Sequence record: LR699048
Length of the DNA stretch: 64,000 bases
Strand: one strand, 5' to 3'
Source of the DNA: Escherichia phage VpaE1_ev035
The notes under the pieces are model-generated. The model saw only the letters and a program-made list of their open reading frames with translations. It was not told where the DNA came from and did no database searches. Within the stretch, counting starts at the first letter, position 1; every line of letters begins with the position of its first letter. This document shows positions 5,850 to 31,443 of the stretch, in pieces. The translations under genes and the position numbers were made by a program.

Positions 5850-6115
5850 CAGAGAATCAAGATACTTTTTACGTAGAAGGGTACTTACTGTTACCACGAC
5901 CAAAAGAAACTTATATGCGAATTGATTTCTTACCAACCATTATGGATAATGTGATGTGCCATATCTTTATGCAAGGTGTCACAGCACAACTTAAGCATGT
6001 TGGTAAAGAGTGCAAAATAAAGGTTGACACTCATCCAGAAATCAAAGAGAATCACTACACATGGTTCTTACCAGACTCTAAAGAAATCTTAGCAGTTCTT
6101 AAAACGAGGAAATGA
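5846..6115 (+). CDS. hypothetical protein
   Basis: ORF track; stop/start overlap with neighbours suggests operon. Confidence 0.45.
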   Translation: MTENQDTFYVEGYLLLPRPKETYMRIDFLPTIMDNVMCHIFMQGVTAQLKHVGKECKIKVDTHPEIKENHYTWFLPDSKEILAVLKTRK

Positions 6116-9908: not shown

Positions 9909-10205
9909 ATGAAATTATCAAATCAAGTGCGTGAAAATCTGAGCAAATTACTCAACAAAATTGATTTCATTGAAACATCAAGGAATAGCCATGATGTTAT
10001 GGAATGGTTACACGGCAAAATAAAAGGTCGTCGTGTAGTGATTTGCTTATGGAACAGTTGCAGGGAGTATAAAAAACCTGTATTACAAGTCAATATCTAT
10101 GATGATACTTTTAAAAGTCCAGTAAAGTCTAAAAGCGATTTATTAGAATCTTATGAGATATCTGTAAATGGCAAAGTATCACGTAAAGAGGTAACACCAT
10201 GTTAA
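9909..10205 (+). CDS. hypothetical small protein (cassette array ORF 4)
   Basis: Conserved leader variant upstream. Confidence 0.55.
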   Translation: MKLSNQVRENLSKLLNKIDFIETSRNSHDVMEWLHGKIKGRRVVICLWNSCREYKKPVLQVNIYDDTFKSPVKSKSDLLESYEISVNGKVSRKEVTPC

Positions 10206-10531
10206 TGACTGGTATCACTGCAATCATTGCCATTTTCGCGCTATATAAGGCGTATATAGCCTATAATCTAGCAAATAAGGCAATCACACAGCAGGTTAGA
10301 AATAACCTTGTAGAGAGCTTTCTAGGGCGTCTCAGTGATGAGCAAATAAAGCGGCTAGAGATGAGCTTCAGATACAAAGCGAAAACCTATCAGATAAGTG
10401 ACATCTTCAAAGATGATTTTCAGTTAGTCGATGATTATAATTCACTAATAAATGCTTTAAATATCAGTGACTTAAAAGACTACTACGCTGTAATTGTTCA
10501 AGAATTGAGCAAACGAAAACAAAGTGTTTGA
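10199..10531 (+). CDS. hypothetical membrane-associated small protein (cassette array ORF 5)
   Basis: ATG overlaps stop of previous ORF (ATGTTAATGA), N-terminal hydrophobic segment. Confidence 0.5.
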   Translation: MLMTGITAIIAIFALYKAYIAYNLANKAITQQVRNNLVESFLGRLSDEQIKRLEMSFRYKAKTYQISDIFKDDFQLVDDYNSLINALNISDLKDYYAVIVQELSKRKQSV

Positions 10532-24649: not shown

Positions 24650-26065
24650 ATGAGCGAATTATTTAAACATGCGCACCTTCATGCAGGTCGAACTGAAAAT
24701 GGTGCTGTAAACCATACTTCATCAATGTCTGCTCTTGTAGACTTTTACAAAGCTGCTGGTTCTAGCCGTAGCAACGTAGAAATCTTACCAGACCTGTTCT
24801 ACAAAGCTTTGCGTGAGGATGTTGATGTTGCAGTTCGTATTTTGCTTCATATGCGAGATGTACGAGAAGGTATGGGTGAGCGTAAAGCCTTCAGAACTGT
24901 TTTGCTTCAAGCAATTGAAGATAAAGTTTTAGAGCCTACACAGGTTCTTCGCATTATGGATAAGATTGCAGAACTTGGTCGTTTTGATGACTTCAAAATC
25001 TTCGTAGGTACTCGTTTCGAGACAGATGCCTTCAAACATTTAGAAGCAGCATTACTAGACCCTGCAACAGCAGGTTTGGCAGCCAAGTGGCTACCACGAG
25101 TCAAACCACGTCATAAGCAGTTTGTAAAACGTTTCTGCAAGTTTGCCAACTTGAGTGAGAAAGAGTACCGCACACTGTTGTCTGCACTATCTGATACAGT
25201 TGAGCAAAAAATCTCTGCTAATGAGTTTGGTAAGATTGACTACAGTAAGATTCCTTCACTTGCTGCTGCACGTTACCAAAACCTGTTTAACCGTAAAGAT
25301 GGAGAGCGTTACAAAGCTTACATCGAGTCCTTATCAAAAGGTGAGACTAAGATTAACGCTGGTGCTGTTTACCCATACGATGTGATTAAATCTGTCAAGT
25401 ATGGTAATGCAGATGTTGCTAATGAGCAGTGGAAATCACTACCAAACTGGATGGCAGAAGGTGAAAACATCTTGTGTATGTCTGATGTATCAAGTTCAAT
25501 GTCTTGGGTGAATTTTGGCTCCATTACTGCTCTGGATATTGGTGTATCACTTGCCTTGTATGTAGCAGAACGCAATACAGGTTGCTTTAAGGATGAGTTG
25601 ATGGTTTATTCAACAAACCCTCACTTCATCGAACTGAGTGGTGATTTACGAAACCGTCATCGTCAGGTGATGCGACACGTTGAATATGGCTCAACCAACT
25701 TACAAGCAGCTTTTGACCGCATTCTTGAGATAGGTAAGAGAAACAACTTGACTCAGGAAGATATGCCAAGTAAGCTTATCATCTTCTCCGATATGGAGTT
25801 CAATCAGGTTGATGGAGCTAACGGTCGTACAAACTTTGAAGCAATTCAGAGCAAGTACAAGAAAGCTGGATATGAGATGCCACAACTGGTATTCTGGTAC
25901 TTAGCAAACCGTAATGGTACTTGCGAAGTGTCTGTTAAGGATAACGGTGTAGCAATGGTATCTGGTTTCTCTCCCGCCACTTTAAAAGCTCTGCTTGGTG
26001 GTGAGAAGTTTGACCCAATCAGCGTAATGCTCAAAGCAGTAATGATTGACCGTTATATCTGGTAA
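24650..26065 (+). CDS. vWA (MIDAS) domain protein with N-terminal helical domain; candidate Ro60/TROVE-like or DUF2828-like protein
   Basis: C-terminal half carries the vWA MIDAS signature in order: CMSDVSSSM (DxSxS), GSTNLQAAF (GxT), LIIFSDMEF (D); N-terminal ~250 aa predicted helical; TROVE assignment is an inference from architecture only. Confidence 0.55.
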   Translation: MSELFKHAHLHAGRTENGAVNHTSSMSALVDFYKAAGSSRSNVEILPDLFYKALREDVDVAVRILLHMRDVREGMGERKAFRTVLLQAIEDKVLEPTQVLRIMDKIAELGRFDDFKIFVGTRFETDAFKHLEAALLDPATAGLAAKWLPRVKPRHKQFVKRFCKFANLSEKEYRTLLSALSDTVEQKISANEFGKIDYSKIPSLAAARYQNLFNRKDGERYKAYIESLSKGETKINAGAVYPYDVIKSVKYGNADVANEQWKSLPNWMAEGENILCMSDVSSSMSWVNFGSITALDIGVSLALYVAERNTGCFKDELMVYSTNPHFIELSGDLRNRHRQVMRHVEYGSTNLQAAFDRILEIGKRNNLTQEDMPSKLIIFSDMEFNQVDGANGRTNFEAIQSKYKKAGYEMPQLVFWYLANRNGTCEVSVKDNGVAMVSGFSPATLKALLGGEKFDPISVMLKAVMIDRYIW

Positions 26066-26083: not shown

Positions 26084-26112
26084 TTGACAATGTGTTTAAT
26101 ACCCTTTAATAT
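26084..26112 (+). promoter_or_regulatory. sigma70-like promoter (TTGACA-N17-TAATAT) embedded in a palindrome, upstream of the tRNA array
   Basis: -35 26084-26089, -10 26107-26112; inverted repeat AGGGTAT/ATACCCT brackets the -35 and spacer. Confidence 0.5.
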
Positions 26113-26174: not shown

Positions 26175-26203
26175 TTGACAATCACTAAAAAATAATGTTA
26201 AAG
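26175..26203 (+). promoter_or_regulatory. possible second promoter (TTGACA-N17-TTAAAG, weak -10)
   Basis: Consensus -35 at 26175-26180, poor -10. Confidence 0.25.
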
Positions 26204-26230
26204 TGGTTACATAGAGTTTGAAAAGTTTAT

Positions 26231-26307
26231 CTCTGTTTAGCTCAGCTTGGTAGAGCGTTCCGTTTGGGGCGGTAAGGCCGGAGGTTCAAGTCCTCCAACA
26301 GAGACCA
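26231..26307 (+). tRNA. tRNA-Pro (anticodon UGG)
   Basis: Manual cloverleaf: acceptor CTCTGTT/AACAGAG (C1-G72), D-arm AGCTCAGCTTGGTAGAGC, loop UUUGGGG, T-arm GGAGG-TTCAAGT-CCTCC, encoded CCA. Confidence 0.75.
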
Positions 26308-26314
26308 AATTAAT

Positions 26315-26392
26315 GTTCCAGTGGACAAAATGGTAAAGTCACCACTCTTTCAAAGTGGATATTTGAGGGTTCAAATCCCTTCTGGAACGCCA
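26315..26392 (+). tRNA. tRNA-Glu (anticodon UUC)
   Basis: Acceptor GTTCCAG/CTGGAAC, anticodon stem CCACT/AGTGG with loop CUUUCAA, T-loop TTCAAAT, CCA. Confidence 0.75.
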
Positions 26393-26397
26393 GTTTT

Positions 26398-26475
26398 GAC
26401 AGAAGACCAATTACAGCAAGTTTAATCTTATTCATCTGAAGGTAAATCGGACAAAGAAGAGATTTGGTCTGGTCA
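26398..26475 (+). ncRNA. conserved structured tRNA-spacer element, copy 1
   Basis: 5' box GACAGAAGACCAATTACAGCAAG and 3' box TTTGGTCTGGTC fold as lower helix GAC/GUC, internal loop AGA opposite G, upper helix AGACCAA/UUGGUCU; ~43-nt apical region. Confidence 0.45.
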
Positions 26476-26483
26476 TTAAGAAT

Positions 26484-26560
26484 TGCGGGTATAGAGAAAT
26501 GGCGTCTCACATGTCTCATTAGCATGGTATCGGCAGGTTCGACTCCTGCACCCGCCTCCA
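26484..26560 (+). tRNA. tRNA-Met or Ile2 (anticodon CAU), non-canonical 1:72 pair
   Basis: Anticodon stem CATGT/GCATG, loop CUCAUUA; T-arm GCAGG-TTCGACT-CCTGC; acceptor pairs 6/7 with position 1 unpaired; CCA. Confidence 0.55.
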
Positions 26561-26564
26561 ATTT

Positions 26565-26629
26565 TGCAGAAGACCGTATTCAGCAACAAAATACTTTTTG
26601 CGGATAAAAGAAAAAACACGGTCTGGCAA
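26565..26629 (+). ncRNA. conserved structured tRNA-spacer element, copy 2
   Basis: 5' box TGCAGAAGACCGTATTCAGCAAC, 3' box ACACGGTCTGGCA; lower helix UGC/GCA (compensatory vs copy 1), same AGA/G internal loop, upper helix AGACCGU/ACGGUCU. Confidence 0.45.
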
Positions 26630-26637
26630 TGTATTAA

Positions 26638-26714
26638 GGTTAGGAAGCACATAAGGTATGTGCGGTCGCCTGTTAAGCGAATGGCACAGGGTTCGAATCC
26701 CTGACTAACCGCCA
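26638..26714 (+). tRNA. tRNA-Asn (anticodon GUU)
   Basis: Acceptor GGTTAGG/ACTAACC, D-stem GCAC/GTGC, loop CUGUUAA, T-arm CAGGG-TTCGAAT-CCCTG, CCA. Confidence 0.75.
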
Positions 26715-26783
26715 AATTTAGGAGAGAAGCGATTGCTCACCGATTTGTAAGGTGCAAGTCCTTAGCCTGAATAGAAATTAAAT

Positions 26784-26871
26784 GTGTCGTTATCCCGTAG
26801 ATGGTAGCGGTGGGGACTGTAAATCCCTTGTCATTGAGACTCGGTAGGTTCGACTCCTACACGGCACACCA
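26784..26871 (+). tRNA. tRNA-Tyr (anticodon GUA), long variable arm
   Basis: Acceptor GTGTCGT/ACGGCAC, anticodon stem GGGA/TCCC with loop CUGUAAA, ~16-nt variable arm, T-arm GTAGG-TTCGACT-CCTAC, CCA. Confidence 0.7.
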
Positions 26872-26876
26872 ATAAA

Positions 26877-26954
26877 GGTTATGTAGTTTAATTTGGTTAA
26901 AATACTCCCCTGTCACGGGAGATGATGAGGGTTCAAATCCCTTCGTAACCGCCA
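26877..26954 (+). tRNA. tRNA-Asp (anticodon GUC)
   Basis: Acceptor GGTTATG/CGTAACC, anticodon stem CTCCC/GGGAG with loop CUGUCAC, T-loop TTCAAAT, CCA. Confidence 0.75.
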
Positions 26955-27012
26955 ATTTTGAGAGGGCTATTTAGCCCCTCCCTTAAAGGGTTCTTACGAG
27001 TATCCTTTAAAG

Positions 27013-27092
27013 GAGCAGAAGACCAAATACAGCAAGTTACTTAAAATTTCAAGCCAATTTAATTTTGAAAAATTTAAAACTTGGTCTGGCTC
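27013..27092 (+). ncRNA. conserved structured tRNA-spacer element, copy 3
   Basis: 5' box GAGCAGAAGACCAAATACAGCAAG, 3' box CTTGGTCTGGCTC; lower helix GAGC/GCUC, AGA/G internal loop, upper helix AGACCAA/UUGGUCU. Confidence 0.45.
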
Positions 27093-27097
27093 AACAA

Positions 27098-27236
27098 ATT
27101 TACAGAAGACCGTTTACAGCAAAACTTAAACAATCTATTTCTCGGTAAAGAAAAGGCGAAGGTTCGATTCCTTCACTCGGCAGATGTCGAGTTGGTGTAA
27201 TGGTAGCACTTAAGATGATAAACAACGGTCTGGTAA
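27098..27236 (+). ncRNA. conserved structured tRNA-spacer element, copy 4, enclosing a circularly permuted tRNA-like module (Y RNA/YrlA-like architecture)
   Basis: 5' box TTTACAGAAGACCGTTTACAGCAA, 3' box AACGGTCTGGTAA (lower helix UUAC/GUAA, upper helix 8 bp); apical region 27158-27210 holds T-arm GAAGG-TTCGATT-CCTTC, then acceptor 3' strand ACTCGGC joined by a short loop to acceptor 5' strand GTCGAGT, then D-arm GTG-TAATGGTAG-CAC; no anticodon arm. Confidence 0.45.
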
Positions 27237-27382
27237 TTATCTTTGTAGATAAGTTATTAAGCTTACCTGTGAGTATGCGACCACAAAGGGTGAAAGGGTA
27301 AATTCTAGATTTAAACCCAAAAAGGCACATCGCTACAGACCTTAAGCAAGTCTGGGTAGCTTATCTACAAAGATAATTTAAT

Positions 27383-27458
27383 GGAAGTGTAGCAGAATGG
27401 TGATGCGGCAGACTTTTAATCTGACAGGCGATGGGTTCGAATCCCTCCACTTCTACCA
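27383..27458 (+). tRNA. tRNA-Lys (anticodon UUU)
   Basis: Acceptor GGAAGTG/CACTTCT, loop CUUUUAA, T-loop TTCGAAT, CCA; T-stem has mismatches. Confidence 0.6.
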
Positions 27459-27462
27459 ATAT

Positions 27463-27539
27463 GGTTCAGTCGCAGATAAGGTAATGCAAGGGTCTCGTAA
27501 GCCCTATGAATGTGGGTTCGAATCCCATCTGAACCTCCA
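27463..27539 (+). tRNA. tRNA-Thr (anticodon CGU)
   Basis: Acceptor GGTTCAG/CTGAACC, anticodon stem AGGGT/GCCCT with loop CUCGUAA, T-arm GTGGG-TTCGAAT-CCCAT, CCA. Confidence 0.7.
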
Positions 27540-27541
27540 AT

Positions 27542-27616
27542 TGTGGGTTAGCATAAATGGTAATGCAAACGGCTGATAACCGTTAGAAGAGGGTTCGATA
27601 CCCTCACCTACAACCA
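27542..27616 (+). tRNA. tRNA-Ile (anticodon GAU)
   Basis: Acceptor TGTGGGT/ACCTACA, anticodon stem AACGG/CCGTT with loop CUGAUAA, T-arm GAGGG-TTCGATA-CCCTC, CCA. Confidence 0.7.
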
Positions 27617-27631
27617 AGTTCAATAAAGTTG

Positions 27632-27660
27632 TTGACATTGAGATGTGACTACTTTATAGT
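27632..27660 (+). promoter_or_regulatory. sigma70-like promoter inside tRNA array (TTGACA-N17-TATAGT)
   Basis: -35 27632-27637, 17-nt spacer, -10 27655-27660. Confidence 0.5.
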
Positions 27661-27864
27661 AACCTTAGTTTTCGTTGCGTAGCGTCTATTTTGCAAATTT
27701 AAAATAAATGCAAACGACAATGTTTTTCTGGCAGTAGCTTGATAGGCTAAACACCAGTGAGGTCTTCCAATCCCTCATCAAAGAATTTGGCGTACTCGCC
27801 CACGGTATGATTAATAAGGTGGGCATCTTTAAGGGCTTTCTAAGAGAGTCTTTAAAGATAATTA

Positions 27865-27946
27865 CGGGGCGTATCTCAGCGGTCTTCTAAACCGCCGTTA
27901 ACCGAGTAAGTGGAGTATGCGGGTTCGAGTCCTGCCGCCTCGACCA
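27865..27946 (+). tRNA. tRNA-Arg-like (anticodon UCU) with aberrant D-arm and enlarged variable region
   Basis: Acceptor CGGGGCG/CGCCTCG, anticodon stem GCGGT/ACCGC with loop CUUCUAA, T-arm GCGGG-TTCGAGT-CCTGC, CCA; D-region does not fold canonically. Confidence 0.45.
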
Positions 27947-28089
27947 ATTTAGTTAGCAGATTACTTAGACGACCTAAGCGGGTCTTCCTGTAGGGAGGTG
28001 GTCTGTATCTCATGTTTTCCAGAACATGTAAATAATCTGAGAAGGGGCTTTACAGTGTTGAGATAATACGGTAAGCTTCGAATTATAGT

Positions 28090-28172
28090 ATGGGACGATG
28101 TTAAGACTCTAAGGCATGAGCAACGGCCTCCAAAACCGTTTCAAAGGGGTTCAACTCCTCCGTCCCATGCCA
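28090..28172 (+). tRNA. tRNA-Trp (anticodon CCA) with expanded D-region
   Basis: Perfect 7-bp acceptor ATGGGAC/GTCCCAT, anticodon loop CUCCAAA (as in E. coli tRNA-Trp), T-loop TTCAACT, CCA; ~6 extra nt before the anticodon stem. Confidence 0.5.
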
Positions 28173-28185
28173 AAGTCTTATTAGG

Positions 28186-28275
28186 GGTAGGTAGCGGCTA
28201 ATGGTAGCCAAACTGTCTTGAAAACAGTTGCCACTGTAGAGATACGGTGAGGGTTCGACTCCTTTACTTACCGCC
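28186..28275 (+). tRNA. tRNA-Ser (anticodon UGA), long variable arm, CCA apparently not encoded
   Basis: Acceptor GGTAGGT/ACTTACC, D-stem GGC/GCC, anticodon stem ACTGT/ACAGT with loop CUUGAAA, long variable arm, T-loop TTCGACT. Confidence 0.6.
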
Positions 28276-28531
28276 TAATAAGATTTAAAGCCAAGCTTCA
28301 TTCGGATGTTGCTTTGGTATCCCTCGTGTATTGTCGTACACGCACAGTAAAGCACCTAGTAGGTGTCACGGAGAAGAGATAATATCAAGCTCTCCAAAGG
28401 TTCTAGTCACCGGATTAAACAAGACTATGCAAAGACCAAATTAGGTCTTTTTAGAGGGCTTCTAAGGTTATTACAGCTTGTTGTGGAACCTTGTTGCTTA
28501 GGTTCTTAGAAGTTCTCTAAAAAGATTTAAT

Positions 28532-28609
28532 GGGAGATTGATGGTAATTGGTAAACCTATCTCGCTTAGAACGAGATGTTTGAGGGTTCGAATCCCTTGT
28601 CTCCTACCA
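28532..28609 (+). tRNA. tRNA with Leu anticodon UAG but short variable arm (type-I architecture)
   Basis: Acceptor GGGAGAT/GTCTCCT, anticodon stem TCTCG/CGAGA with loop CUUAGAA, 5-nt variable loop, T-arm GAGGG-TTCGAAT-CCCTT, A73, CCA. Confidence 0.55.
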
Positions 28610-28616
28610 AATTAAT

Positions 28617-28692
28617 GCAGGTGTAGCAAAATGGTTATGCGGCTGACTCTTAATCAGTAAGACGATGGGTTCAATTCCCTCCACCTGTACCA
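28617..28692 (+). tRNA. tRNA-Lys (anticodon CUU)
   Basis: Acceptor GCAGGTG/CACCTGT, anticodon stem GCTGA/TCAGT with loop CUCUUAA, T-loop TTCAATT, CCA. Confidence 0.55.
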
Positions 28693-28698
28693 AAAAAT

Positions 28699-28774
28699 GG
28701 GGTCATAGTTTATATGGTTAAAATTCGAGTTTTGCAAACTTGGGAACTGAGTTCAATTCTCAGTGACTCCACCA
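28699..28774 (+). tRNA. tRNA-Ala (anticodon UGC)
   Basis: Acceptor GGGGTCA/TGACTCC, loop UUUGCAA, T-arm CTGAG-TTCAATT-CTCAG, CCA. Confidence 0.7.
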
Positions 28775-28780
28775 ATTAGT

Positions 28781-28855
28781 GCATCCATAGTTTAAACGGG
28801 AAAATTACAGTCTTCCAAACTGAGGTTGAGGGTTCGATTCCCTCTGGATGCTCCA
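28781..28855 (+). tRNA. tRNA-Gly (anticodon UCC)
   Basis: Perfect acceptor GCATCCA/TGGATGC, loop CUUCCAA, T-arm GAGGG-TTCGATT-CCCTC, CCA. Confidence 0.75.
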
Positions 28856-28861
28856 AATAAT

Positions 28862-28937
28862 GCTCCTATCGTATAATTGGCTATTACGGTTGCCTTGTAA
28901 GCAACTTATCAGGGTTCGAATCCTTGTGGGAGCACCA
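28862..28937 (+). tRNA. tRNA-Thr (anticodon UGU)
   Basis: Acceptor GCTCCTA/TGGGAGC, anticodon stem GTTGC/GCAAC with loop CUUGUAA, T-arm CAGGG-TTCGAAT-CCTTG, CCA. Confidence 0.75.
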
Positions 28938-29032
28938 ATTCAGAGGTCAAGTGAAAGACCGCTGGTGTCAACTGAAGACCGTAACAAATTCCACGGAGTT
29001 GAGTTAGCGGCACAACTTCAGACCTCTTTCAC
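28938..29032 (+). ncRNA. candidate structured RNA between tRNA-Thr(UGU) and tRNA-Val
   Basis: Multiple complementary segments (GAGGTC/GACCTC, GTGAAAG/CTTTCAC, CTGAAG/CTTCAG); contains a GAAGACCG box related to the spacer elements; no tRNA fold. Confidence 0.3.
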
Positions 29033-29107
29033 ACTCGCTTAGTTTATATGGTAAAACATCACCCTTACAAGATGAAGAAAAAGGTTCAAGTCCTTTAGTG
29101 AGTACCA
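29033..29107 (+). tRNA. tRNA-Val (anticodon UAC)
   Basis: Acceptor ACTCGCT/AGTGAGT, loop CUUACAA, T-arm AAAGG-TTCAAGT-CCTTT, CCA. Confidence 0.65.
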
Positions 29108-29108
29108 T

Positions 29109-29186
29109 GTTCCAGTATCCCAATTGGCAGAGGATGCAAGCTCAAACCTTGTACTAGTGACGGTTCGAATCCGTCTTGGAACACCA
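29109..29186 (+). tRNA. tRNA with Leu anticodon CAA but short variable arm (type-I architecture)
   Basis: Acceptor GTTCCAG/TTGGAAC, anticodon stem GCAAG/CTTGT with loop CUCAAAC, T-arm GACGG-TTCGAAT-CCGTC, A73, CCA. Confidence 0.55.
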
Positions 29187-29191
29187 ATTTT

Positions 29192-29267
29192 GCAGGATTA
29201 GTTCAAATGGATAGAGCAACAGTCTACGAAGCTGTTAATAGGGGTTCGAATCCCTTATCCTGCACCA
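29192..29267 (+). tRNA. tRNA-Arg (anticodon ACG)
   Basis: Perfect acceptor GCAGGAT/ATCCTGC, D-arm GTTCAAATGGATAGAGC, loop CUACGAA, T-arm AGGGG-TTCGAAT-CCCTT, CCA. Confidence 0.8.
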
Positions 29268-29285
29268 GATAAGCAAGAGGAATTT

Positions 29286-29528
29286 ATGCAAACATTAATC
29301 GTCGTTGAACATGAAAATTCCAATAGTATTGAGTTTGTAAGGGTTCCCACTATAGATACCCACATTTTCTTAAAAGTCGGATGGGAATGCGACCCAATAA
29401 AAGTAGAAAGATTTATTGGTCATTGCTTTGGTGGAAGACAACTTAAAAGTGTCAATTTTGAGACAATGTTACCAGAAAGCTCAGAAACAAGTAATAATGC
29501 TTACCTCCTTACGAGGGTTAGACAATGA
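29286..29528 (+). CDS. hypothetical protein (inside tRNA array)
   Basis: ORF track, ATG with AGAGG RBS. Confidence 0.4.
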   Translation: MQTLIVVEHENSNSIEFVRVPTIDTHIFLKVGWECDPIKVERFIGHCFGGRQLKSVNFETMLPESSETSNNAYLLTRVRQ

Positions 29529-30082
29529 GATACTTAAAATATGCTTCATGGATTTTCTTAGCTTTGCTAGAACCACTTGCAGCAATACTAGCAGTTATCT
29601 TAGCACCTTTCGTAGTTCCATTCTACAGTGAGAAGAAAGGACATCTACCTTTTGGATTCAGATGGATGGAGACCTATGACAACCCAATTGATGGTGATGA
29701 AGGTCACGTTAAAAGATGGGCTAATATTAGATGGATTGGTAAACTAGGTGTCTACATGCAAAGAGTTGGATGGCTCTGGAGAAACAAAGCTTATAACTTC
29801 TCTTACCATGTGTTAGGAAGAGATGTAAAAGATGTTACTAAGTGGAAAGGTAATATCAACGTAAGTTCTAACCCTGAAGATAATCAGACTGGTTATCTCC
29901 TAATGTGGAACAGGAATGCTTGGGGATTATTCGCTTTTATCCCATCAATTAAAATCTTTGGTAAACAATTTTACTGGAGAATTTATATTGGATGGAAACT
30001 AAAAAGTGTTGTCCCAGAAGAAAGAGCATTCTCAAGGGAAAGAGTTATGTTGGCATTCTTTATTCATCCACTGAGAAAGTAA
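29525..30082 (+). CDS. hypothetical membrane protein (inside tRNA array)
   Basis: N-terminal hydrophobic segment IFLALLEPLAAILAVILAPFVV; Trp-rich. Confidence 0.45.
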   Translation: MRYLKYASWIFLALLEPLAAILAVILAPFVVPFYSEKKGHLPFGFRWMETYDNPIDGDEGHVKRWANIRWIGKLGVYMQRVGWLWRNKAYNFSYHVLGRDVKDVTKWKGNINVSSNPEDNQTGYLLMWNRNAWGLFAFIPSIKIFGKQFYWRIYIGWKLKSVVPEERAFSRERVMLAFFIHPLRK

Positions 30083-30090
30083 AGATTTAA

Positions 30091-30166
30091 AGGGGATTAG
30101 TTTACAAGGTTAAAACCTCGGTCTTTGAAATCGAAGAAGTTGGTTCAATTCCAACATCCCCCGCCA
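30091..30166 (+). tRNA. tRNA-Gln (anticodon UUG)
   Basis: Acceptor AGGGGAT/ATCCCCC (1:72 unpaired), anticodon stem TCGGT/ATCGA with loop CUUUGAA, T-arm GTTGG-TTCAATT-CCAAC, CCA. Confidence 0.65.
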
Positions 30167-30168
30167 AT

Positions 30169-30247
30169 GCTCCATTACTCCAATTGGCAGAGAGGCCAGA
30201 CTTAAAATCTGTGTTATGTATCGGTTCGAATCCGATATGGAGTACCA
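30169..30247 (+). tRNA. tRNA with Leu anticodon UAA but short variable arm (type-I architecture)
   Basis: Acceptor GCTCCAT/ATGGAGT, anticodon stem CCAGA/TCTGT with loop CUUAAAA, T-arm ATCGG-TTCGAAT-CCGAT, A73, CCA. Confidence 0.55.
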
Positions 30248-30252
30248 AATTT

Positions 30253-30328
30253 AGCGGTATAGCATAACTGGCAATGCAGCAGTCTCTGAAGCTGTCTTAT
30301 TAAGGTTCAAATCCTTATGCCGCTGCCA
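30253..30328 (+). tRNA. tRNA-Gln (anticodon CUG)
   Basis: Acceptor AGCGGTA/TGCCGCT, anticodon stem GCAGT/GCTGT (two G-U pairs) with loop CUCUGAA, T-arm TAAGG-TTCAAAT-CCTTA, CCA. Confidence 0.6.
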
Positions 30329-30359
30329 CTTCTAAGGGTTCTTACGAGAGTCCTTAAAT

Positions 30360-30435
30360 GTGGCCTTATCATAAATGGTAATGACCCATGCTGTGAACAT
30401 GGTCTATACGGGTTCAAATCCCGTAGGTCACCCCA
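30360..30435 (+). tRNA. tRNA-His (anticodon GUG)
   Basis: Acceptor GTGGCCT/AGGTCAC, perfect anticodon stem CCATG/CATGG with loop CUGUGAA, T-arm ACGGG-TTCAAAT-CCCGT, discriminator C73, CCA. Confidence 0.75.
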
Positions 30436-30440
30436 ATTTA

Positions 30441-30517
30441 TAGTCCAAGTAGCTTATATGGTTAAAGCGCGTGTCTGAAAAACATGAGAAGAGGGTTCAA
30501 ATCCCACTGGACTACCA
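30441..30517 (+). tRNA. tRNA-Phe (anticodon GAA)
   Basis: Acceptor TAGTCCA/TGGACTA, anticodon stem CGTGT/ACATG with loop CUGAAAA, T-loop TTCAAAT; exact ends uncertain. Confidence 0.6.
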
Positions 30518-30533
30518 ATTTCAAAGGTGCTTA

Positions 30534-31268
30534 ATGAAAGAGATGACAGAACAAGGTAAGGAGATTTTTAATCTCTTAAAAACTGGTAAAGGGTTCTCTA
30601 ATCCCCTTATTACTGGTGCAGCAGTTCTCGGTGGAACCGTAGCTGCCTCTATATCACTTGTAAGCTCTATTAGCTCTGTAACAGACCCTACAATAAAAGA
30701 TAAACTTGTTGCTGCTGGACTTACAACAGTTCTGCTTAACAGCTTTACAACGAGTCTGACAAGCACTACATCAACTACCAAAACGCTAACGGATTATGGT
30801 CAAAAATCCATTGATGAGTTTTCATCACGTATGCAGGTAGCAAAAGGTTATTCTAATGTTATGGGTGCAGCAGGGGAGCAAGTTGGTTGTACACCGTTTA
30901 GTGGTATTATGGGCGTTGCTACAGAATATGGTCAAAAAGCTATTGACACAATTAACAGTGCACTAGATGGCGTTAATGATGTGTTAAGTGACTTACAAGA
31001 TGCTATTGATAATGGTCTTGATACTGTTTCTGATTTAGCTAACCAAGCTGTCAGTAAGATTAATGAAGGTATCTCAAAGATTACAGCTTATGCAGATGAA
31101 GTTGTGCAGATGATTGAAGAAGAGGCTGCCCTTATTGCAGAGTACCTTAAAACGAATATCAATGGGTTCTTAGCAGGTATCTTACCAGACTGGTTTGATG
31201 ATGCCTGTAAAACTGGTGTAATTGACACTATTGCAACACCAGAAATGAAGAGCGCATTACAGAAATAA
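30534..31268 (+). CDS. hypothetical protein (inside tRNA array)
   Basis: ORF track frame 30471..31268 starts inside tRNA-Phe; first ATG after the tRNA at 30534; Ser/Thr/Ala-rich with helical C-terminus. Confidence 0.5.
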   Translation: MKEMTEQGKEIFNLLKTGKGFSNPLITGAAVLGGTVAASISLVSSISSVTDPTIKDKLVAAGLTTVLLNSFTTSLTSTTSTTKTLTDYGQKSIDEFSSRMQVAKGYSNVMGAAGEQVGCTPFSGIMGVATEYGQKAIDTINSALDGVNDVLSDLQDAIDNGLDTVSDLANQAVSKINEGISKITAYADEVVQMIEEEAALIAEYLKTNINGFLAGILPDWFDDACKTGVIDTIATPEMKSALQK

Positions 31269-31269
31269 T

Positions 31270-31360
31270 GGAAGATTAACCCTAAAAGGTAAGGGAGCAG
31301 TTTGCTAAACTGCCAGTAGCTGAGAAATCGGTGTACCAGTTCAAGTCTGGTATCTTCCTC
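31270..31360 (+). tRNA. tRNA-Ser (anticodon GCU), long variable arm
   Basis: Perfect acceptor GGAAGAT/ATCTTCC, D-stem CCC/GGG, perfect anticodon stem GCAGT/ACTGC with loop UUGCUAA, ~20-nt variable arm, T-arm ACCAG-TTCAAGT-CTGGT, CCA. Confidence 0.8.
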
Positions 31361-31367
31361 CAATTTT

Positions 31368-31443
31368 GAATCCGTGACAGAAATGGATATGTGCCTGTCT
31401 GCAAAACAGGTTTATAAGGGTTCAAGTCCCTTCGGATTCTCCA
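31368..31443 (+). tRNA. tRNA-Cys (anticodon GCA)
   Basis: Perfect acceptor GAATCCG/CGGATTC, perfect anticodon stem CCTGT/ACAGG with loop CUGCAAA, T-arm AAGGG-TTCAAGT-CCCTT, CCA. Confidence 0.8.

Follow-up and report, generated by a model that had tools for sequence, protein, structure and literature searches.

Particles of Ro60 and Y RNA form a conserved machinery for RNA quality control, and in humans Ro60 is a major autoantigen. To our knowledge, the particles of bacteria and phages have been described only for Ro60 proteins of the TROVE type. Here we analyse a 64,000-nucleotide stretch of the genome of Escherichia phage VpaE1_ev035 (record LR699048; hereafter the window), in which four structured elements lie at the start of a tRNA cluster, just downstream of a 471-codon gene for a Ro60-like protein (Table 1). 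We consider it likely that these elements are non-coding RNAs of the Y RNA kind and the cognate partners of that protein.

Several described systems invite comparison. As Chen et al. (2014, PMC4201824) described, the YrlA RNAs of bacteria and a mycobacteriophage are permuted, with V first, then the T arm, a closed acceptor-like stem-loop and the D arm. The motifs that Ro60 contacts are GGUCCGA in animals and GNCGAAN0-1G or CGAA in bacteria and phages (PMC4201824, PMC12135203), and the Ro60 of a Thermus phage (phiLo) binds two adjacent Y-like RNAs, Yrl1 and Yrl2 (PMC12135203). In phage Bas63, the protein gp130 has a likeness to Ro60 and counters the ppl defence; its describers guessed that Y RNAs may hide among the tRNA genes (bioRxiv 10.1101/2024.10.10.617714).

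The protein encoded upstream of the four elements is orthologous to Bas63 gp130 and shares 97% identity with it. Its MIDAS (metal ion-dependent adhesion site) motif, DxSxS...T...D, is intact, its Pfam match to VWA_2 is weak, and PHROGs labels its family 'RNA-binding protein'. An AlphaFold2 model built with 40 homologs scored highly (predicted local distance difference test 90.2, predicted template modelling score 0.90), and a Foldseek comparison of this model with the PDB returned Ro60/TROVE proteins as all of its top 12 matches. As modelled, the protein has the Ro60 fold, a ring of HEAT repeats joined to a vWA/MIDAS domain.

The elements were recognised in a preliminary description by a 5′ box and a 3′ box. 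There are exactly four occurrences of the 5′ box, CAGAAGACCNNNTNCAGCAA, in the window, all on the + strand (at 26400, 26567, 27016 and 27103), where shuffled sequences give an expectation of 0.5, and each has a YGGTCTGG partner downstream (at 26465, 26619, 27082 and 27226). The four copies are thus real, although they occupy three tRNA spacers rather than the four first reported (Glu-Met, Met-Asn and Asp-Lys, the last holding copies 3 and 4), and the boxes lie 32-103 nucleotides (nt) apart, not 36-110 nt. The minimum free energy (MFE) fold of each copy contains the common structure that had been proposed: a lower helix, an internal loop of AGA opposite a single G, and an upper helix of 7-8 base pairs (bp), which we call P1. 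That the lower helix differs between copies while staying paired also holds, but it measures 4 bp in every copy (UGAC/GUCA, UUGC/GCAA, GAGC/GCUC and UUAC/GUAA) and not 3-4 bp. Copy 1 begins 332 nt past the stop codon of the Ro60-like gene, on the same strand, and copies 1 and 2 occupy their spacers almost end to end. ARAGORN calls none of the four a tRNA.

Felixounavirus genomes, among them those of Salmonella phage Mushroom and Escherichia phage adrianh, match this region of the window at 96-97% identity, and the same boxes and fold are kept in 17 related Felixounavirus loci. Together with the window, these loci yielded 21 distinct core sequences, extracted with a pattern that imposed no pairing on the lower helix or on the top two upper pairs. 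Every pair cell among them (231/231) is paired, against 21-45% when the partner strand is slid. Changes on both sides affect three of the four lower-helix pairs and two of the seven P1 pairs; among orthologues of copy 2, the lower helix switches from UGC/GCA to UAC/GUA. The earlier argument from compensatory variation to a conserved RNA structure is borne out.

Bas63 itself (L092, MZ501086; L numbers are our designations for contigs) carries the same four elements in spacers, distinct from its annotated tRNAs. Part of the region of its copies 3 and 4 bears annotations of small coding sequences on the minus strand. Both bas63_0137 and bas63_0138 (L092 22749-23023) overlap copy 4 together with the structured RNA beside it, and the 3′ end of copy 3 is also clipped by bas63_0137. 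Neither is probably a gene. A corresponding minus-strand open reading frame (ORF) of 76 codons is present in the window at 27100-27330.

Copy 4 is a circularly permuted tRNA mimic with the layout of bacterial YrlA. Its interior runs from V through the T arm and a closed acceptor-like hairpin to the D arm. All seven pairs of the acceptor-like hairpin show changes on both sides, such that its sequence changes wholesale between phages and yet stays paired. Because the 'acceptor' strands pair with each other and their hairpin covaries, copy 4 is not a pair of tRNA remnants. The Rfam tRNA model (RF00005) finds only the T arm, at 14.9 bits. Copies 1-3, like YrlB-type RNAs, have no tRNA-like domain; they carry short idiosyncratic hairpins.

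The same architecture stands beside related genes in distant phages. We collected 80 viral contigs encoding relatives of the protein, 65 of which are only 39-47% identical to it. Orphan T-loops were found in the fetched contigs beside the DUF2828 gene and on its strand, and the architecture recurs with a wholly different P1, as in AGAUUCAC…UACAGCAA…GUGAAUCUG and AGGUUCAC…UUACAGCAA…GUGAACCUG. We built a covariance model, R1, from 11 tRNA-like members and ran it over both strands of 846 kb; it gave 104 matches at E<=1, all of them on the strand of the DUF2828 gene. A further 39 matches in eight named phages also lie on the gene strand, making 143 of 143. These 39 fall in unannotated gaps adjoining the gene, apart from some false positives at tRNA junctions and one element of Bacillus phage Nate (L088 1212-1341), which occupies a tRNA spacer ~1.6 kb upstream. 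False positives of R1 arise where two true tRNAs adjoin, from the T arm of one and the D arm of the next; they score 23-33 bits and were excluded by eye (for example 28545-28660, 27476-27585 and 30164-30297 in the window, and L082 3822-3939).

A strict descriptor has a density of 4.8 matches in every 10 kb at up to 1.5 kb from the gene, against 0.8 elsewhere and 0.3 on the opposite strand. At least one such match lies near the gene in 57 of 69 distant loci, and by eye several of the others hold copies that vary slightly. Other ORF families of the neighbourhood are each shared by 15 of 70 loci at most. In the R1 alignment 93% of cells are paired, against 61.5% after shuffling and 37-43% after sliding, although these pair counts are somewhat inflated by the alignment having been fitted to the model. 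Across 99 distinct sequences, all seven P1 pairs show changes on both sides and 96% of cells are paired. A model-free test, in which the 5′ boxes were kept and only the downstream sequence was randomised, found a downstream partner of at least 7 bp for 64 of 248 boxes, compared with 14-17 in controls, and no excess on the opposite strand. The test had at first admitted G-U pairs without limit, which proved too permissive (94 of 248 real boxes, 54 in the control), and was tightened.

A tblastn search of 50,697 phage records recovered homologues of the protein in 709. Eight far-flung examples are phages Krypton555 (Mycobacterium), P100plus (Listeria), CP8 (Campylobacter), SEP9 (Staphylococcus), EF1 (Enterococcus), Nate (Bacillus), RSP15 (Ralstonia) and KP13-26 (Klebsiella), and hosts of linked loci also include Vibrio and Aeromonas. 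Each of the eight has 1-4 elements on the strand of the DUF2828 gene. A G follows P1 in all of these elements, and ACAGCAA is present in all but one from Nate (L088 2798-2873, ACAGCUA). The gene of Krypton555 is annotated 'Ro-like RNA binding protein'. In most of the eight the gene lies inside or beside a tRNA cluster.

The consensus of the 99 sequences begins with an A/U-rich flank and A-G-R-N4, the 5′ strand of P1. This is followed by N-U-W and by C-A-G-C-A-A, whose positions are each 85-99% conserved, then by a variable interior, an A-rich run, the 3′ strand N4-Y-C-U, and a G (85/93). The second pair of P1 is G:C in 86 of 91 cases, and the C of CAGCAA nearly always lies at a distance of 10 nt from the first A of P1. 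Conservation of the U, of CAGCAA and of the 3′ G (~85-99%) while P1 varies freely is what one would expect of a site that a protein contacts. The loop of AGA opposite G is the Felixounavirus version of a general feature, which is an A-rich 5′ side of P1 and a G on its 3′ side.

What the module encloses is variable. Interiors may be short hairpins (50-70 nt overall), tRNA-like (100-140 nt) or large (200-250 nt), and arrays of 2-4 elements are common. Large elements often follow directly on a short one, downstream of the DUF2828 stop codon; their interiors have no Rfam match at the gathering score or at E<=1, and a single-sequence fold of such an interior was no better than shuffles (z = -0.5). 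In Aeromonas phages resembling Aeh1 and phiAS5, the relationship of module and mimic is itself permuted. Here (L063 ~10090-10420 and L060 ~9930-10230), two tandem RNAs, situated 2.5 kb downstream of the DUF2828 gene, each form a tRNA-like structure of normal order, with a long acceptor-like stem that holds the RNA ends, a D arm and a T arm. The module replaces the anticodon arm, its P1 being capped by G-AUA and followed by UAUUCCGCAA or UUACGGCAA. This natural permutation indicates that module and tRNA mimic belong together wherever the RNA ends lie. Anticodon stem-loop mimicry as a general rule for short interiors was rejected, as only 9 of 100 qualified against 2.9 expected and a shuffle maximum of 8; a minor subclass does have a hairpin of this kind, in which a 5-bp stem closes a loop of 7 nt (for example CUGCUAA, CUCUUAA or CUCCUAA).

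How do these elements compare with Y RNAs? Like YrlA and YrlB of Salmonella and Mycobacterium, the YrlA of a mycobacteriophage, and Yrl1 and Yrl2 of phiLo, they are same-strand neighbours of a gene for a Ro60 fold made of a ring and a vWA domain. Like these bacterial and phage Y RNAs, they come several to a locus, with paired ends that bear a short conserved sequence and with a modular, variable interior; as with YrlA, one member per locus has a permuted tRNA-like domain. The partner, however, is a DUF2828/DUF7788 protein rather than a TROVE/vWA_Ro60 protein, and where the elements have ACAGCAA the YrlA of mycobacteriophage Bxz1 has GCCGAGAG. Relatives of copy 4 in KP13-26 and Krypton555 score 32.5-40.1 bits on the Rfam YrlA model (RF02553), short of its gathering score of 69, while the genuine, TROVE-linked YrlA of Bxz1 scores 32.5 bits. 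The model aligns only the tRNA-like core of the KP13-26 and Krypton555 elements, omitting P1 and ACAGCAA, and R1 in turn finds only the tRNA-like core of the Bxz1 YrlA. The effector domain of copy 4 is YrlA-like, but its docking module is different.

The short elements have a likeness of another kind. The sole Rfam family that matches them is Dicty_Class_I_RNA (RF01414), at scores below the gathering score of 41.5 bits: 24.0 for copy 2, 15.3 for copy 3, 28.8 for an element of L047, and 25.0 and 23.5 for two of KP13-26 (L090). All five matches found (5/5) fall on elements with the module. Class I RNAs, from dictyostelid social amoebae, are 42-65 nt long (median ~60), with a G+C content of 32-41% and a variable 6-bp terminal stem with compensatory changes. 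An invariant 5′ G, preceded by two conserved As, pairs with the C of a 3′ CUGU, and the 5′ stem strand is followed by an unpaired 11-nt motif, CCUUACAGCAA, in which U3, C6, C9, A10 and A11 are invariant. They have been reported absent outside Dictyostelia, in a search whose genomes did not include phages (Kjellin et al. 2021, PMC7919456).

The Rfam consensus of Class I RNAs reads GaUcuCCUUACAGCAA...GagAuCUG, and that of the phage elements AAG-N5-N-U-W-CAGCAA...AAA-N5-CUG-N-U. Both have a variable, covarying stem, a 5′ G paired with the C of CUG(U), two As before that G, an unpaired (C)CUUACAGCAA motif directly past the 5′ strand, an A-rich run before the 3′ strand and a variable middle. Short phage elements are ~55-70 nt long, with low G+C. 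C6, C9, A10 and A11 are at least 92% conserved across the phages. The window copies read UUACAGCAA, AUUCAGCAA, AUACAGCAA and UUACAGCAA at the site of the 11-nt motif, and their ends are AAG...CUGG. From AAG to CUG they measure 55 nt (copy 2), 68-69 nt (copies 1 and 3) and 128 nt (copy 4), at 29-41% G+C, and many distant short members measure 50-62 nt. The phage module differs in a linker that is 1 nt shorter and in its scores of 15-29 bits, under the gathering score. Further, the phage elements have sigma-70-type promoters and a tRNA operon instead of a Dictyostelium upstream sequence element (DUSE) ~60 nt upstream, and some have tRNA-like or 200-250 nt interiors.

To judge by the sequences, this likeness appears striking and previously unreported. 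We speculate that phage and Class I RNAs might be a single family, cognate to Ro60-like proteins of the DUF2828 type, which occur in eukaryotes too. They would then form a third lineage of Ro/Y-type ribonucleoproteins (RNPs) across phages and eukaryotes, in which every RNA joins the same docking module (AAG, stem, ACAGCAA, CUG) to one of several exchangeable effectors, for instance a tRNA mimic, short hairpins or a domain of 200-250 nt. We advance this tentatively, as a possibility that has somewhat less in its favour than against it. If true, it would give Class I RNAs a candidate protein partner and a mechanism, and would overturn the view of them as amoeba-specific and linked to multicellularity. 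The near-identity of the core makes it testable what these abundant RNAs bind and do.

The preliminary description had as its lead idea an RNA of the Y RNA kind with the nearby vWA gene as its partner, and this idea gains support from the YrlA-type domain of copy 4 and the same-strand linkage to DUF2828 genes. The elements are best read as a variant of the Ro60/Y RNA kind, apparently with a distinct protein family, a distinct recognition module and a wide distribution among phages. From the covarying RNA structure, the protein fold and the linkage of gene and RNAs established here, we infer how they might be expressed, processed, bound and used. The RNAs would be transcribed with the tRNAs from promoters just past the Ro60-like gene. 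Excision of the neighbouring tRNAs by RNase P and the tRNA 3′-end enzymes would release them, as established tRNA maturation works in this way, with one further cut for copies 3 and 4. Their ends would pair through the lower helix and P1 and so present a fixed module, composed of an A-rich 5′ side with AAG, a P1 of 6-7 bp and free sequence, single-stranded (U)UWCAGCAA starting 3 nt after P1, and an A-rich side followed by CUG. On this module the Ro60-like protein would dock. The variable interior could be the working end, connecting the protein with further factors or substrates in the way that Y RNAs tether Ro60 to PNPase. For the tRNA mimic of copy 4, possible roles are to recruit PNPase, RNA-repair enzymes or enzymes that bind tRNA, or to serve as a decoy. 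The resulting RNP may act on RNA, probably in tRNA surveillance or repair, or in defence evasion during infection.

Such a system would represent a second phage Ro/Y lineage, much more widespread than the first, with its own RNA recognition code and with multiple modular RNAs per locus, tRNA mimics among them. The DUF2828 gene is often found in phage tRNA clusters and sometimes near RtcB. The anti-defence protein gp130 of Bas63 would gain candidate RNA partners, located in spacers that are unannotated or misannotated as coding, and the link to tRNAs suggests involvement in the arms race that phages and bacterial defences wage around tRNAs.

Several points weigh against a Y RNA partnership. The relation of the protein to Ro60 is one of fold only and is invisible in sequence: Pfam finds no TROVE match in it (PF05731 or PF25045), phmmer detects no TROVE homology, NCBIfam returns nothing, and a profile of the 40 homologs reaches Ro60 among PDB sequences only at E 1.6. 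The control, gp220 of Bxz1, matches TROVE at 9e-50 and vWA_Ro60 at 4e-54 in Pfam. On the RNA side, the scan that the preliminary description had recommended with the Rfam models Y_RNA (RF00019) and YrlA gave no match in the window at E<=10, even in a search of 990 nt. That description had also likened the bulged helix to the kind of site recognised by Ro60. The sequence conserved beside the stem is ACAGCAA, with a 3′ G, and not GGUCCGA or GNCGAA. In addition, gp130 alone, from a plasmid or from a T7 genome devoid of these RNAs, restores growth of T7 on ppl, so the RNAs are unnecessary for that activity unless host RNAs substitute for them. Finally, only one protein has been shown to bind the look-alike Class I RNAs directly, namely Rnp1A, which is of RRM type and not Ro-like (PMC7919456).

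The missing contact motif, the self-sufficiency of gp130 against ppl and the precedent of Rnp1A also favour the strongest of the rival explanations. In this account the RNAs are tied to the DUF2828 gene but are read by some other protein, such as a host factor or one of RRM type, or are substrates or products of the Ro60-like protein. We think it unlikely. The largest neighbour family reaches only 15 of the 70 loci, so that no second protein family is held in common. The hosts range from Actinobacteria to Campylobacterota, and a common host reader must thus be very widely conserved. The same-strand adjacency is exactly that of Ro60 and Y RNAs.

Slightly less probable still is that the elements act in cis, as operators or stability elements for the mRNA of the Ro60-like protein, or as sponges that titrate it. 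The first element lies ~10-60 nt past the stop codon of the gene in many distant loci, and a 5′ box, AGACAUUUUACAGCAA, is present in the 5′ leader of the gene at L018 5964-5985 and L017 ~5950-5975, both from KVP40-like Vibrio phages in which it is ~20 nt before the ATG, and at L021 ~5930-5960. From there the protein might regulate its own mRNA. In the window, however, two promoters and two tRNAs part the elements from the gene, and arrays of 2-4 elements whose interiors include tRNA mimics and 200-250 nt domains go beyond the needs of a simple operator. Bacterial Y RNAs are likewise often co-transcribed with rsr, the neighbouring Ro60 gene.

The preliminary description offered two alternatives to a Y RNA, namely signals for tRNA-precursor processing, and small stable RNAs like those of the T4 tRNA cluster. 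We regard both, whether as processing or punctuation signals or as partnerless stable by-products like species 1 and 2 of phage T4, as very improbable. It is true that the window elements lie in tRNA spacers, two of which they nearly fill, and that DUF2828 genes are often within tRNA clusters. The elements would also resemble the T4 RNAs (rnaC and rnaD) in being small, stable and co-transcribed with phage tRNAs, and rnaC ends in a T-arm-like hairpin. Nevertheless, more than 25 loci have the module beside a DUF2828 gene with no tRNA within 6 kb, and the arrays of SEP9 and Krypton555 are not interleaved with tRNAs. In the T4 tRNA cluster, R1 yields only false positives at tRNA junctions, and no DUF2828 gene is nearby. 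As rnaC and rnaD lack the P1/ACAGCAA module, we rejected them as relatives. Last, functionless decay of tRNA genes, or scars of rearrangement or homing endonucleases, might be read into the T-arm and D-arm sequences of copy 4, the 'tRNA-OTHER' or pseudo-tRNA that some records annotate somewhere in the matched tRNA region, and the HNH endonuclease insertions in that region of some relatives, but is close to refuted by the closed, covarying 7-bp hairpin of the acceptor-like strands, unexpected of two remnants, by the absence of tRNA parts from copies 1-3, and by the conservation of a non-tRNA module across host phyla.

Table 1. Positions of the elements and associated features (window numbering unless a contig is named; R1, covariance model described in the text)
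Feature	Position	Strand	Details
Gene for 471-aa Ro60-like protein	24650-26065	+	Pfam DUF2828 and DUF7788; vWA domain
Two sigma-70-like promoters, in front of tRNA-Pro	26084-26112, 26175-26204	+	10/12 each in consensus scan; consensus matches only
Copy 1, short class, fills tRNA-Glu/tRNA-Met spacer	26397-26475	+	R1 32.9 bits, E 3.9e-5
Copy 1, lower helix	26397-26400/26472-26475	+	AGA loop 26401-26403; bulged G 26471
Copy 1, P1	26404-26410/26464-26470	+	UUACAGCAA 26411-26419
Copy 2, short class, tRNA-Met/tRNA-Asn spacer	26564-26629	+	R1 32.6 bits
Copy 2, lower helix	26564-26567/26626-26629	+	
Copy 2, P1	26571-26577/26618-26624	+	AUUCAGCAA 26578-26586; G 26625
Copy 3, short class, long tRNA-Asp/tRNA-Lys spacer	27013-27092	+	R1 31.9 bits, filters off
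Copy 3, lower helix	27013-27016/27089-27092	+	
Copy 3, P1	27020-27026/27081-27087	+	AUACAGCAA 27027-27035; G 27088
Copy 4, tRNA-like class, tRNA-Asp/tRNA-Lys spacer	27100-27236	+	R1 98.4 bits; MFE fold; alignment with 10 relatives
Copy 4, lower helix	27100-27103/27233-27236	+	
Copy 4, P1	27107-27114/27224-27231	+	UACAGCAA 27115-27122
Copy 4, connector helix	27125-27128/27211-27214	+	
Copy 4, tRNA-like domain	27138-27209	+	
Copy 4, V hairpin	27138-27153	+	
Copy 4, T arm	27158-27174	+	GAAGG UUCGAUU CCUUC
Copy 4, closed acceptor-like hairpin	27175-27192	+	7 bp
Copy 4, D arm	27195-27209	+	…UAAUGGUAG…
Fifth conserved structured RNA, between copy 4 and tRNA-Lys	27234-27384	+	MFE -48.3 kcal/mol, z = -5.5
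Large-class elements	L047 7521-7762; L037 4793-5032; L029 7850-8080; L017 2595-2841; L040 5771-6002; L049 5409-5659; L068 5652-5897; L073 5653-5899		P1/CAGCAA/G enclosing 200-250 nt interior
Anticodon-loop-like elements	L083 4664-4719; L085 2865-2929; L019 4091-4148; L020 9236-9293; L035 5869-5928		

The tRNA cluster comprises 25 genes, all on the + strand, from 26231 to 31443 (ARAGORN). The two promoter-like sequences in front of tRNA-Pro presumably start a polycistron of tRNAs and non-coding RNAs; no terminator-like site was found on the + strand between them and the next promoter at 27632.

Copy 4 is followed by a fifth conserved structured RNA. None of 200 shuffles was as stable, and it has a closing stem of ~24 bp around four inner hairpins, with compensatory changes in the closing stem and in one inner hairpin (L011 and L013). 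It has no match in Rfam or to R1. One of its hairpins, CUAC-AGAC-CUUAAGCAA-GUCU-G-GUAG (~27330-27358), resembles a shortened module.

Behind the promoter at 27632 (TTGACA-17-TATAGT) is a unit resembling transfer-messenger RNA (tmRNA; 27632-27945, + strand), with a tag-like frame, ANDNVFLAVA*, at ~27710-27742. Its matches to the Rfam models tmRNA_permuted (31.4 bits, gathering score 47) and tmRNA are both sub-threshold. A tRNA-like element within it (27865-27943) scores 31.7 bits on the Rfam tRNA model, and ARAGORN makes no call there.

The surroundings of the DUF2828 gene in Listeria phage P100plus are also rich in RNA functions. An RtcB RNA ligase gene lies 1.3 kb downstream, and a match to the ROOL family (RF03087, 86 bits, gathering score 99.1) lies ~1 kb upstream, at L084 1426-1977. 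Together with tRNAs and three module RNAs, they constitute an RNA-centred neighbourhood.

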